From assembly GCA_963697995.1 (NCBI GenBank), contig OY969110.1:1511404-1575403 (forward strand): a stretch of DNA of 64,000 nt. Reading direction: 5' to 3'. The position numbers and the translations under genes are program-made. The notes under the pieces were generated by a model. It did no database searches. It was not told where the DNA came from and was given only the letters and a program-made list of their open reading frames with translations. Positions 31,145 through 36,176 of this stretch are shown one piece after another (the stretch's first letter is position 1; the number at the start of each line of letters is the position of its first letter). The DNA is from an uncultured Chlamydiae bacterium. Lineage in GTDB: Bacteria > Chlamydiota > Chlamydiia > Chlamydiales > JAJFMB01.

Positions 31145-32470
31145 TCATATTGTCTTTACTTTTTGAGAGACCGCTAGATAATCTAAACTTTTTTCTATTA
31201 CAAATTCTCTTAAAAGAAAAACACCAACAAGGTTACTTAAGAGCATTAAGGTGATCGATAAATCGGCAAGTCCCCAAATGAAGTTCACGTTTAAAAAAGC
31301 GCCAACCGGAATCAGGGCCACATAAAAAATACGGTAGTAGAGGATAGACTTCTCCCCAAAAAGATACGCTGCAGCTCTCTCCCCACAGTAGCTCCAAGCT
31401 AAAATCGTCGTATAAGCAAACAGGATTAAGGCGACCACAACCACAACTTCTCCCAGAGGACCCATTCCCTGATGAAAGGCGTAAGTGACCTGTGTTGTGC
31501 TTTCTAACCCATTGACTTTATAAGCCCCAGTCAGGATTAAGACGAGAGCTGTCGCTGTGCAGACGATCATTACAAGAACAGGAGTGATTAGAGTGGCAAT
31601 ACCGTCGAGGACAGGGTTATTTGTCCTTGCACCCGCTTGCAAAATCGGTACAATTCCCGTTCCAGCGTCAGTTGCAAAAAGACCCCTATCGAACCCAACG
31701 GTAATCCCTTTAAATACGGCAGCACCAAGAGCTCCTCCAGCCGCAGCTTTAAGAGCAAATGCCTCTTGAAAAATTAAGTAAAAAGCTTGAGGAGTATCCA
31801 CGATCCGGGTCAAAATAATATAAAAAGCGCCGGTTAAATAAAATGCGGCCTTAAGCGGCACAACGGCTCCAGCAAAAGAGGAGAGACGCTTAATCCCTCC
31901 TAAAATCACAAGTCCAATCGCAAGGGCAATCCCAAGAGAGGGGAGAAGTGGGTCGATCTCTTTAGCTTTTAGGGGCAATATCATGGAGTTAACTTGTGCA
32001 AAATTACCCACTGAAAGCGCCCCCATAAGGGTAAAAACAGAAAAAGAAATGGCTAGTTTTTTCAAGCCTAGCGCTTTTAAGTAGTACATCGGTCCACCGA
32101 CATACTCCCCATTTTCATTCACTTCGCGGTACTTTATGCTTAATAAACAGCTTGCGTATTGAATGATTGAGGCAAGCGCCACCATCACCCACATCCAAAA
32201 AAGAGCGCCTGGTCCCCCAGTGGTTAGCGCGATGGCCATACCTGAAATGTTACCCGTTCCAAAGTTACCTGCAAGAACCGCTGAGATCGCTCCAAATCGG
32301 CTGATAGTTCCTGTGTCCCCTTTCCCTTGATCTCTTATGCAAGTGAAACTTTTTTTTAACTGAGTGAATTGAAAAAAATTAAGTTTGAGGGTGAAGTAAA
32401 GGCCGATAAAAAGAACAGCCGGGAATACGAGATATAGAGTTAAAATGTGGTTTACAGTGTCTAAAAACAT
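31145..32470 (-). CDS. agcS: Alanine/glycine:cation symporter (AGCS family)
   Basis: 441-aa polytopic protein. GNFGTGNISGMAIALTTGGPGALFWMW is the AGCS signature region. Confidence 0.85.
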   Translation of the reverse strand: MFLDTVNHILTLYLVFPAVLFIGLYFTLKLNFFQFTQLKKSFTCIRDQGKGDTGTISRFGAISAVLAGNFGTGNISGMAIALTTGGPGALFWMWVMVALASIIQYASCLLSIKYREVNENGEYVGGPMYYLKALGLKKLAISFSVFTLMGALSVGNFAQVNSMILPLKAKEIDPLLPSLGIALAIGLVILGGIKRLSSFAGAVVPLKAAFYLTGAFYIILTRIVDTPQAFYLIFQEAFALKAAAGGALGAAVFKGITVGFDRGLFATDAGTGIVPILQAGARTNNPVLDGIATLITPVLVMIVCTATALVLILTGAYKVNGLESTTQVTYAFHQGMGPLGEVVVVVALILFAYTTILAWSYCGERAAAYLFGEKSILYYRIFYVALIPVGAFLNVNFIWGLADLSITLMLLSNLVGVFLLREFVIEKSLDYLAVSQKVKTI

Positions 32471-32529
32471 AAGGCCCCATTTTATCTAAAGGTCTCTAAA
32501 TAATCAAGAGCTCTTAAGTCTTATAAGAC

Positions 32530-34221: not shown

Positions 34222-35091
34222 TTAAAATGAGATGGGGTACCTTTCATTCATATTGATAACAGGGATGTAAGGATTAAAATAAGTAGAGGCAAGACTTAAA
34301 TTAGAAGAGGTTCTCACTAAAACATCTCCTTTAGACAGCAGAAGGCAATCGATTAACGCCTCAAGTCCTGACTGATAAGGGTCTTCAGCCTCCAAATGGA
34401 GAGGTTTTCCGTTTGTTGAGCGTTTAGCTGTTTCGTTGAAGCAAACAGCCTCCCCAAAATGAGCTTTAAGAAATTCTAGAAAAGGAGCCTCATCTGTGGC
34501 TACAAAAAGTTTAAAATCTGATCTGTTATTTGATTTGATAACCTCTTCGATTTTTTTAAGGGCGTCAACGTAGGATACTTGAGGCGCTTCAGTTATTTTG
34601 TCTGTTCCTCTGTAGTGAACAGAAATGACAAAATAGCCAAGAAGATTGTTTTTGTAAAAAGTGTTTACAAAATCGATGATTTTAGGACGAATAGTGATAT
34701 ATTTTTTTATTAAATGAGAGCACTCAAGGCTTGAAGTAAAAAGCTCGATTTCCCAACAGGACGAATTAGGGGGAAAGTAAGCTTGAATAGTTGGAGGTTT
34801 TATATCGCCAAATTGAGTCGGTAGAAAATAGTAATTCCACCAATTCTTTCCCCGATTTGGAGAGTAATAAAGGCCCGTAGTTCCAAAATCGACCTTAAAA
34901 CCTCTAATTAAACCTTTGTCATAAGATTTACATACAGCTAAAATGTATTGAAAAGTGGAAAAAAAGCCCGCAGAGTCTCGATCGATAATGATGAGAGCGT
35001 TTTCAGTAAGGGGTGTTTTATTTAACCGATCAAAATTCCCTTGTAATGTTTGAAAAAAGATAAAAGATAAAAATAAAAATCTTAATGTCAT
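34222..35091 (-). CDS. GT23-like (FUT8/NodZ-type) fucosyltransferase-like glycosyltransferase, paralog 1
   Basis: Same motifs as paralog 2 (SVHYRGTDKITEAPQVSY, LFVATDEAPFLEFLKAHF, LIDCLLLSKGDVLVRTSSNLSLASTY). The ATG overlaps the stop of the upstream gene (ATGA). Confidence 0.7.
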   Translation of the reverse strand: MTLRFLFLSFIFFQTLQGNFDRLNKTPLTENALIIIDRDSAGFFSTFQYILAVCKSYDKGLIRGFKVDFGTTGLYYSPNRGKNWWNYYFLPTQFGDIKPPTIQAYFPPNSSCWEIELFTSSLECSHLIKKYITIRPKIIDFVNTFYKNNLLGYFVISVHYRGTDKITEAPQVSYVDALKKIEEVIKSNNRSDFKLFVATDEAPFLEFLKAHFGEAVCFNETAKRSTNGKPLHLEAEDPYQSGLEALIDCLLLSKGDVLVRTSSNLSLASTYFNPYIPVINMNERYPISF

Positions 35092-36176
35092 AATTTTTCT
35101 ACCCGCTTAATACCTAATTTGTCTACAACGACCCTATATTTTTCGTCAGAATTGTTGTTTGAAGTGATCACCATATTTAAATGATACACCTTTGGTAGAT
35201 GCATTTTTTCGACGCTGTTTGTTTTTTGATTAAAGGAGAGGTAGAGGGGAAGAGTATCTGAGGCTTTTGCTATCAAATGGTGAATATTGAATCGAAAAAG
35301 GATGTTTAAATCTTTGAGGCGAGGATCAGCTTTCGGGTCTTGTTTGTAAAGAATCACTTCTCTTTTGTACTTGATCACCGTTTCGAATCTCTTGATATCG
35401 GGAAGCTCTTCTGAAAAGTTATTTTCTCGAAGATATTTAATTTTTGGAGGAAGTTCGTGCGATTTTAAAAATTGTACTGTCTCTTTTAAGTCACCTATTT
35501 TATTGCCCGAAGGATCCAAAATATCTGTGCTAAAGTCGGGAAACCAGAAGCTTGCTCTATTTTGATACAAGTTTTTTAGACCTTCCTTGACCCTATCCTT
35601 TAGAATATAGAGCAGAACAATGGTTAAGATCACAGGAAAAGAGGTCGTGATAAGGGGGTTAGTGGCCCGGGAAAAAAAAGCCATAGCAAAAAGAGTCGTA
35701 TAGAGAAACATCGCAATGCCAGCAGCGATCGCTCCAAAAGCGGCCCCGTGTTTTTCTTGTACTGCAACCCTCGTCGATTTGAGCTGCAGCACTTCTCTTA
35801 TGTATTTGGCAAGAAGGCTATTTCTTAGTAAAATCGATTCCCGTTTTTTAATTGGAAATTTTTCTTTTTGGTATTGATCGTTCTGAGATAGGACCTGCTT
35901 GATCTCATCTGTTACATTAGCGTTAGGACACATCTCTAAAAGGCCACAAAGGTAGTATTCGATCGATTGGAGGATAAATTCATCGACATGGGAAAAGCTA
36001 AGTTCCAATTCTTTGGGAAGAGAGGCTTTAAGGCGTAAAAAGTTTTCTCTAAACTCTTCAATATCTGTAGATAGCGTCTTAAGATCTTTTTTTAATGTGT
36101 CGAGATTGTTAGCATCGTTGTTTAGTATGATACGGCGTACCTCTCTTTCGAAGGGTGCTTCTAAAGATATTGGCAA
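35088..36176 (-). CDS. Hypothetical membrane protein (probably the C-terminal 3/4 of a longer frameshifted gene)
   Basis: The ORF starts only at a TTG. Central TMS cluster AAFGAIAAGIAMFLYTTLFAMAFFSRATNPLITTSFPVILTIVLLYIL. See the frameshift finding. Confidence 0.55.
   Translation of the reverse strand: MPISLEAPFEREVRRIILNNDANNLDTLKKDLKTLSTDIEEFRENFLRLKASLPKELELSFSHVDEFILQSIEYYLCGLLEMCPNANVTDEIKQVLSQNDQYQKEKFPIKKRESILLRNSLLAKYIREVLQLKSTRVAVQEKHGAAFGAIAAGIAMFLYTTLFAMAFFSRATNPLITTSFPVILTIVLLYILKDRVKEGLKNLYQNRASFWFPDFSTDILDPSGNKIGDLKETVQFLKSHELPPKIKYLRENNFSEELPDIKRFETVIKYKREVILYKQDPKADPRLKDLNILFRFNIHHLIAKASDTLPLYLSFNQKTNSVEKMHLPKVYHLNMVITSNNNSDEKYRVVVDKLGIKRVEKL

Follow-up and report, generated by a model that had tools for sequence, protein, structure and literature searches.

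In a window of 64,000 nucleotides (nt) from an uncultured Chlamydiae bacterium (GenBank assembly GCA_963697995.1, contig OY969110.1, positions 1,511,404 to 1,575,403), two intact genes for NodZ-like glycosyltransferases (GTs) flank a chimeric gene in which the start of agcS, encoding an alanine/glycine:cation symporter, is fused in frame to the 3' part of X, a gene for a conserved chlamydial membrane protein. We consider it probable that this arrangement stems from an old tandem duplication of the short-junction type, formed at a chance 12-base match between X and agcS, and that gene conversion later made part of the two copies alike again. The two GT genes would be what was kept, and the chimera a by-product.

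On the minus strand, the genes run in the order outer-membrane protein (OMP), X, GT2, chimeric open reading frame (ORF), GT1 and agcS (Table 1). Units 1 and 2 are collinear head-to-tail copies, with 91% identity and 148 mismatches over 1691 aligned nt in a global alignment. When the region was compared with itself by blastn, 32293-33900 matched 33985-35590 with 90.6% identity over 1611 nt, and 33900-33986 matched 35638-35724 with 98.9% identity. The repeat has a period of ~1690 nt and a single junction at 33985/33986, besides which the global alignment contains three gaps of 3, 1 and 48 nt. The first of these corresponds to the length of a T run at the GT start, and the second to a run of three versus four C (33556-33557 and 35246). 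Since the copies are collinear and separated by few indels, the tandem duplication is real, far beyond chance. The original prediction, made from the letters of the window, had proposed a duplication extending from the middle of X to ~180 nt inside agcS, which both alignments bear out. The agcS-like 5' segment on which it depends is present at 33985-34162 as 59 codons, the first 33 of which are one base off agcS, and the lone novel in-frame agcS'::X' junction is there as well. No third copy of the unit and no further copy of GT, X or agcS was found within the window.

That the duplication is an artefact of assembly or polishing, either a mis-assembled tandem copy or near-identity produced by cross-mapping of reads, is extremely improbable. 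The source is a single 2.05-Mb contig from an organism of uncultured type, and two 1-nt frameshifts fall in short runs, both of which would fit such an origin. However, 148 differing positions, four indels and a specific in-frame fusion are not assembler inventions, and coding density is high in the remainder of the window, where ORFs are long.

The breakpoints of the duplication are marked by the 12-mer GATCGCTCCAAA (plus strand), which occurs exactly twice in the 64 kb, at 32285 and 35727, where 0.01 occurrences would be expected from shuffled sequence. Its minus-strand reading, TTTGGAGCGATC, encodes F-G-A-I in frame in both X and agcS. Both the shared 12-mer and its coding for the same four residues in the two proteins had been correctly predicted. 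The RFGAIS segment is kept across chlamydial agcS orthologs. Relatives of the locus were sought by protein searches with GT, X and agcS and by a scan of GTDB representative genomes, a set to which the window's own genome does not belong, and the only close relative found is a 6.4-kb sequence from JGI metagenome 3300048597 (hereafter L001). At the site of the 12-mer, L001 X has TTTGGGGCTTTG, which matches at only 8 of 12 positions, and the identity between X and agcS is thus a chance event in the lineage of the window. The X-side 12-mer overlaps a 10-nt palindrome, AGCGATCGCT, at 35724-35733.

At the novel junction, the minus strand reads CGATTT/GCTGGC (i.e., ...CGATTTGCTGGC...), whereas an in-register crossover would have left ...CGATTTGGAGCGATCGCTGCTGGC.... 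Compared with a crossover inside the 12-mer, 12 nt (GGAGCGATCGCT, minus strand) are absent. These 12 nt have TG on either flank and include GCGATCGC, the core of the palindrome that X retains. The chimera accordingly consists of agcS codons 1-59 followed in frame by X from AGIAMFLY on. The loss of 12 nt had been anticipated, and it is borne out by this comparison. The junction string that had been quoted, GCCAGCAAATCGACT, is present, although it starts at 33980 and not at 33981, while the other quoted strings lie where they had been placed. A crossover in the 12-mer followed by loss of 12 nt is most likely how the junction arose, since this is the most economical route, and we infer that the events occurred in this order. 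The junction could also have been made in one step, by illegitimate joining at a 2-nt overlap (TG, minus strand), the 12-mers being coincidental or a mere alignment aid. A one-step join needs no second event to give the junction as it stands, and the "CA" at 33985-33986 is common to both parents. Nevertheless, each breakpoint is only 0-3 nt away from a 12-nt identity that the 64 kb contain nowhere else, the chance of which we estimate as ~30x30/4^12, or ~5e-5, and the missing nucleotides are exactly what an in-register crossover leaves and contain a deletion-prone palindrome. Because a one-step join would reduce the unique 12-mer near both breakpoints to a coincidence, we accept the two-step reading and hold a one-step origin to be highly improbable.

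The original prediction had treated the unit as uniformly diverged, but identity between the copies is strongly heterogeneous. In the agcS part, codons 1-33 are 99.0% identical, with one mismatch in 99 nt and a synonymous divergence (dS) of 0.046, while codons 34-59 are 84.8% identical, with a dS of 0.467. The intergenic region is 88.1% identical. In the GT genes, identity is 95.1% over codons 1-90 (dS of 0.064 for codons 1-75) and 82.9% over codons 91-290 (dS of 0.505 for the GT core). The 3' part of X (X3') is 97.9% identical, with a dS of 0.000 (none of 122 synonymous sites changed), and its synonymous divergence differs from that of the GT core with a Fisher p of 1e-16. A maximum chi-square analysis places a change point at 33181 (chi2=75, permutation p<=0.003) and a weaker, second-level one near 32510 (p ~0.02). 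Tract A, which begins at the first of these, is 97.5% identical to its counterpart versus 85.6% to the left of it. The locus therefore carries the signature of gene conversion, namely near-identical tracts that are sharply bounded, at synonymous sites and in a pseudogene fragment. Since the near-identical parts include a non-functional fragment, selection at the protein level offers no explanation. The two diverged segments are physically apart, have equal dS, and one of them abuts the junction, and they therefore fit a single duplication ~0.5 synonymous substitutions per site ago. Judged from the sequences of the two copies, gene conversion between the tandem repeats, which is the usual cause of such patterns, is on balance the likely cause of the mosaic, and about half of the unit appears to have been re-homogenised.

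The same mosaic would be produced if the duplication were recent, with ~2% divergence as in X3', and if the GT core and agcS' codons 34-59 of one copy had been overwritten by allelic import from a related strain ~0.5 dS away. Such an import would fit the observation that both GT cores resemble constrained orthologs (dN/dS of 0.25) and are equidistant from the L001 GT, and it would easily explain why a chimera bearing indels is otherwise 98% identical to X. However, it needs two tracts of equal divergence (dS of 0.505 and 0.467) separated by an unreplaced segment of 140 nt. One of these tracts ends exactly at the duplication junction or breakpoint, which old divergence would predict but which would be a coincidence under import. 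Moreover, in agcS' codons 34-59, three of the four residues that can be polarised are derived in the chimera, as in a fragment that has long been decaying, and no such donor lineage is seen among 5.8 billion proteins, in which the nearest GT is 53% identical. We therefore regard import as unlikely and retain an old duplication followed by conversion.

As for the GT genes, both products pass the gathering cutoff of the Pfam NodZ family (PF05830, 28.3 bits), with 40.2 bits for GT1 and 34.6 bits for GT2, and both match the rhizobial NodZ structure in the PDB (2hhc), with E values of 8e-9 and 7e-5, respectively. The blocks that align with NodZ are VHYR/VHVR, ATDEA/CTDSA, and ALIDCLLLSKGDVLVRT/ALIDMYLLARCATVIRF. 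Both GTs retain the VHYRGTDK, ATDEAPF, and ALIDCLLLSKGD(I/V)LVRTSS blocks, within which they differ by only one conservative I/V change (GDILVRT versus GDVLVRT). The nucleotide-sugar-binding motifs that were tested, HxR, (A/C)TD, and the C-terminal LLxx..R block, are present in both. Which GT residues are catalytic we presume from the literature on FUT8 and NodZ. The profiles clearly assign the family to the GT23 (NodZ-like) type, and the predicted enzymes are probably fucosyltransferases. GT1 and GT2 share 82% identity in protein and 86.7% in DNA, in line with the two intact paralogs of ~80% identity that had been described. Their dN/dS amounts to 0.28 over the whole gene and 0.25 in the unconverted core, and the state of the outgroup, L001 GT, is kept by GT1 at 11 sites and by GT2 at 8, which points to symmetric divergence. 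By these measures, neither copy is decaying, and both are under purifying selection. The earlier suggestion of selection for two GT copies is backed by the dN/dS values, the symmetry, and the retention of all GT23 motifs.

Several features of the GT genes were observed in passing. In the part encoding the signal peptide, GT1 has a T9 run in codons 11-14 (A9 on the plus strand, 33361-33369), where GT2 has T6 (35053-35058). The T9 run may be slippage-prone and is a candidate for phase variation. The close homologs of this NodZ-like GT (P0004-P0101) all carry a hydrophobic signal or anchor at the N terminus, a feature that rhizobial NodZ lacks. Three to four such genes are adjacent or nearly so in the glycan clusters of other organisms (L054, L055, and a 60-kb JGI contig), which also hold GT11 fucosyltransferase, GDP-sugar epimerase/dehydratase, and sulfotransferase genes. 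Repeated local duplication thus seems typical of this subfamily.

The chimera bears several marks of decay. The parental agcS product matches TIGR00835 (alanine/glycine:cation symporter) over its full length with 391.5 bits, above the cutoff of 272.65 bits, and its chlamydial orthologs are 55-60% identical. In the chimera, residues 18-66 match profile positions 7-56 with 18 bits, a short match that identifies its agcS part as a fragment. Through the 48-nt deletion, its X part has lost PVILTIVLLYILKDRV, the block that is best conserved across the X family. Residues P181-R195 are invariant in this family, for which [LF]YILKDR[LVI]K was chosen as the pattern with the highest conservation, and the block FP.IL...LYILKDR.KEG is kept in the parental, split X and deleted in the chimera. 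In addition, the chimera is substituted at the invariant T217 and Y331 and at the nearly invariant R286 and L290, and the 1-nt deletion in the C run replaces its last 53 codons. Both the 16-codon deletion (35590-35637 has no counterpart) and the frameshift had been recognised by the first reading of the DNA. Two predicted membrane helices are retained. Protein searches returned no homolog of the fusion elsewhere. As regards X function, the sequence thus presents the chimera as a decaying by-product.

The substitutions between the two X fragments (33399-33986 versus 35088-35724) have an unusual distribution. All 12 are nonsynonymous. Codon position 2 accounts for 10 of them and position 1 for the other two, with position 3 unaffected. 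The probability of at least 10 of 12 falling at one given codon position is 5e-4, and that of no synonymous change among 12 is ~0.04-0.06 under neutrality. Eight of the 12 are derived in the chimera, at residues common to X and L001 X, and the 12 have no base or context in common. An overlapping ORF behind the position-2 bias was rejected, since the five alternative frames hold 8-17 stops and at most 7 of the 12 changes are silent in them. Mutagenesis of the diversity-generating retroelement type was rejected as well because the substitutions are not adenine-specific. Possible causes are two-way conversion filtered by selection on X, which would erase silent differences and let radical ones survive, positive selection acting on the chimera, or chance in a small sample.

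These substitutions bear on whether the chimeric ORF might instead be a new gene with a function of its own, under positive selection. Neither the junction nor the losses of 12 and 48 nt disturb the reading frame, the agcS start region is almost unchanged, membrane helices are kept, and every change relative to X is nonsynonymous, all of which a functional gene would account for. However, the lack of synonymous changes is only marginally improbable under neutrality, as given above, and the frameshift, the loss of the invariant family motif, and the lack of homologs of the fusion argue for decay. We consider a functional chimera very unlikely and keep to the view that it is a by-product of the duplication.

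The parental X itself is not a single ORF. X homologs are single proteins of 466-510 aa, and a tblastn search of the window with the L001 X protein finds its residues 1-119 at 36504-36148 and, in a different frame, its residues 99-466 at 36194-35091. This two-frame match shows that X starts at 36504 and is split by a frameshift, which lies near 36130-36150 in an AG-rich stretch (CGAAAGAGAGG), the two ORFs overlapping by 68 nt. The 362-aa ORF that had been taken for X therefore exists, but it is only the 3' part of a frameshift-split gene of ~490 aa. This frameshift may stem from an error in sequencing or from a real mutation that makes X a pseudogene. The X family has no Pfam entry. Distant homologs, with 25-29% identity over ~240 residues, occur in metagenome-assembled genomes of rumen/gut Bacteroidales (loci L035-L053), which is unexpected for a protein otherwise confined to Chlamydiota.

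L001 is collinear with the window from the MFS transporter gene to the end of GT2, with 71% nucleotide identity and the order MFS-OMP-X-GT. It has one GT gene (4319-5170), which adjoins X. Immediately after this gene, the L001 sequence is homologous to window 29072-28885, which flanks, on the 3' side, a gene for a protein with a ubiquitin C-terminal hydrolase (UCH) domain. At this point (5171-5186), L001 lacks the window block 29073-34222, which holds the DUF6268-like OMP, the 214-aa protein, agcS, and the extra unit. This block is either an insertion in the window or a deletion in L001. Since the L001 GT is followed by the UCH gene and not by agcS, the pre-duplication order X-GT-agcS is deduced rather than observed. 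Of the single-copy ancestor that had been proposed, the X-GT pair is thus seen in L001, but agcS does not adjoin it there. Identity between the window and L001 is 53% for GT versus 84% for MFS, 73-81% for OMP, and 70-73% for X, and GT thus evolves unusually fast within a conserved neighbourhood. In the search for relatives with the single-copy order, X of L001 had 66-70% identity. X is also present at about 30 other chlamydial loci. None of these includes a homolog of GT at a distance of up to 10 kb, and just a single one (L010) shows even a remote agcS-like match, with 27% identity. In one genome that is less closely related, MFS-OMP-X precedes an AI-2E transporter. The searches turned up no other genome with the duplication.

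The regulatory signals around the two units also differ. The 81-nt stretch from the GT1 stop to the agcS start (32465-32545) has a fold energy of -23.0 kcal/mol and contains a perfect 22-nt palindrome at 32513-32534, whereas the counterpart in unit 2 (34157-34237) has a fold energy of -12.2. The strong GT1 hairpin, formed by a near-perfect palindrome, is a candidate terminator that may insulate agcS and may have been lost between GT2 and the chimera. With the hairpin after GT2 degraded, read-through from X-GT2 into GT1 is also plausible. A copy of the agcS promoter-like site, TTGATT-17-TAAAAT, lies at 34199-34171, upstream of GT1. The chimera probably still gives GT1 an upstream copy of the promoter and start region of agcS, along with a transcribed path, a role in expression that these signals weakly suggest. 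One could go further and propose that the duplication was kept for rewired expression, with GT1 behind the agcS promoter copy and GT2 translationally coupled to the OMP-X operon, giving two diverging versions of a fast-evolving, signal-peptide-bearing, fucosyltransferase-like enzyme. We find this doubtful. If it were true, two GT versions under different control would diversify a surface or host-directed glycan of a chlamydial symbiont, and ongoing conversion filtered by selection on X would explain why only radical differences survive between the X fragments.

The history that we favour would run as follows. In the ancestor, the minus-strand order would have been OMP, X, GT, agcS, and X and agcS would by chance both have had the FGAI-encoding 12-mer, in the same reading frame and 3.4 kb apart. 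Unequal exchange or a template switch between the 12-mers would have duplicated the intervening 1.7 kb in a RecA-independent short-junction event, yielding X, GT2, an in-frame fusion of agcS codons 1-59 with the 3' half of X, GT1, and agcS, and the junction would afterwards have lost 12 nt. The duplication would be old, as recorded by the ~0.5 synonymous divergence in the two segments that still reflect its age. Later gene conversion would have made two tracts alike again, one covering X3' and GT codons 1 to ~75 and the other the agcS promoter region and codons 1-33. The retained payload would be the second GT23-type gene, the two copies now being 18% diverged in protein under purifying selection.

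A number of points weigh against this history. The junction keeps no copy of the 12-mer, whereas a short-junction duplication would leave one there. Most of the repeat is among the 12 missing nt, and a second event, the 12-nt deletion, must therefore be assumed. Two sequences alone cannot separate gene conversion from import of diverged DNA, and if one conversion event covered X3', all three indels of the chimera must postdate it. A neutrally decaying pseudogene would not be expected to show the all-nonsynonymous, position-2-biased changes of X3'. Neither the protein searches nor the genome scan found the exact single-copy order X-GT-agcS. Finally, promoter and terminator consensus matches are no more numerous than in shuffled sequence, and the agcS promoter copy is to be read as a suggestion.

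Short-junction tandem duplication is a known type of event, of which this locus is a new and very clean instance, with no new mechanism. In Staphylococcus aureus, short-junction duplications of 1.2-1.9 kb form at repeats of 7-8 bp and create in-frame fusions of sigH with codons 42-50 of the downstream gene, the resulting chimeras (nusG'-'sigH and rplK'-'sigH) being driven by the promoter, ribosome-binding site, and start codon of the downstream gene (PMC3486894). The two systems share a unit of 1-2 kb, a short direct repeat (12 bp in the window), parents that both stay intact, and one new in-frame junction to which the upstream gene contributes its 3' part and the downstream gene its promoter, ribosome-binding site, and first ~50 codons. 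In principle, the effect on regulation would be the same as well, with a copy of the agcS promoter-like site and start region upstream of GT1. However, the S. aureus duplications are rare, unstable, and laboratory-selected, and the chimera is their useful product, whereas the chlamydial duplication is fixed and old (dS ~0.5), its junction repeat is lost, its chimera is decaying, and the retained product is the GT inside the unit.

For the conversion step, the closest functional analogy is futA/futB of Helicobacter pylori, paralogous fucosyltransferase genes that exchange segments by intragenomic recombination (PMC2583950). Here too, paralogous sugar-transferase genes show mosaic identity and differ in the length of a homopolymer in the 5' coding part (T9 versus T6). 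In contrast, futA and futB lie at separate loci and encode GT10 alpha-1,3-fucosyltransferases, their phase variation is proven, and exchange has been observed between isolates, while the chlamydial genes are GT23-like and in tandem, and we infer their conversion from one genome. Compared with the NodZ/FUT8 alpha-1,6-fucosyltransferases (CAZy GT23; PF05830, PF19745; PDB 2hhc, 2de0), the two GTs align over the GDP-fucose-binding half and keep the HxR..TDK, ATDE, and LLS..(V/I)RT.S blocks. They differ from NodZ in that identity is only ~25%, over residues 117-263, and in their N-terminal hydrophobic signal or anchor, which NodZ does not have. Unlike nod genes, they sit downstream of an OMP and a chlamydia-specific membrane protein gene, and their donor and acceptor sugars are putative.

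Table 1. Features of the duplicated locus and its surroundings, in positions of the 64-kb window
Feature	Positions	Strand	Remarks
DUF6268-like OMP	29004-29936		
214-aa hydrophobic protein	29948-30592		
agcS	31145-32470	minus	Full-length, 441 aa; Pfam Na_Ala_symp, E=3e-99
GATCGCTCCAAA, agcS parental breakpoint	32285-32296		Codons F59-I62, RFGAIS
Duplication unit 1	32293-33986	minus	agcS codons 1-59, intergenic region, GT1, X' 3' fragment
Homogenised tract B	32372-32510	minus	Counterpart 34064-34202; agcS promoter-like region and codons 1-33
Terminator-like hairpin	32508-32542	minus	Spans the GT1 stop codon; a U-rich stretch follows; copy after GT2 (~34200-34234) degraded
GT1	32530-33402	minus	NodZ/GT23-like glycosyltransferase, 290 aa, intact
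Homogenised tract A	33181-33986	minus	Counterpart ~34873-35724; X 3' fragment and about the first 75 GT codons
Chimera agcS'(59 codons)::X' (P0127)	33399-34162	minus	ORF 34162-33488, 224 aa; X' codons 33557-33399 out of frame
Novel junction GCCAGCA/AATCGACT	33980-33994		"CA" at 33985-33986 attributable to either parent
Duplication unit 2	33985-35724	minus	agcS' 5' part of the chimera, intergenic region, GT2, 3' part of parental X
GT2	34222-35091	minus	NodZ/GT23-like glycosyltransferase, 289 aa, intact; start overlaps the X stop (ATGA)
Parental gene X	35088-36504	minus	Conserved chlamydial membrane protein; split into 36504-36109 (131 aa) and 36176-35088 (362 aa)
48 nt of X absent from the chimera	35590-35637	minus	16 codons within FPVILTIVLLYILKDRVKEG
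GATCGCTCCAAA, X parental breakpoint	35727-35738		AAFGAIAAG
Legionella_OMP-type outer-membrane protein gene	37685-36504	minus	
MFS transporter gene	37845-39383		Divergent from the OMP-X-GT genes

Other observations concern the remainder of the window. The OMP gene upstream of X (36504-37685) contains two 30-nt tandem repeats at 36773-36832, which are 90% identical and encode the cysteine-rich CNSCNNNSNG. The protein with the UCH domain (27269-28921, 550 aa; E=2e-24 for this eukaryote-type domain), whose gene is syntenic with the L001 UCH gene, is likely a host-directed effector. Three pairs of ORFs on the same strand overlap by 40-107 nt (40067-40927/40849-41637, 13591-14343/14237-15136, and 6956-7927/7888-8787) and may be frameshift-split genes, in which case either the assembly would have scattered indel errors or the genome would carry several recent pseudogenes. 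No Rfam or tRNA match was found anywhere in the window.

Most duplications of this kind have been seen solely as unstable events in the laboratory. The one described here has become fixed in a reduced genome of the host-associated type, in which tandem paralogs are seldom met. The locus would be an unusually legible natural record of the growth of a gene family, in which the 12-mer that may have triggered the event, the leftover fusion and its decay, two kept enzymes, and partial re-homogenisation can be read side by side. The fast-evolving NodZ-like transferase is a candidate host- or surface-interaction factor in environmental chlamydiae.

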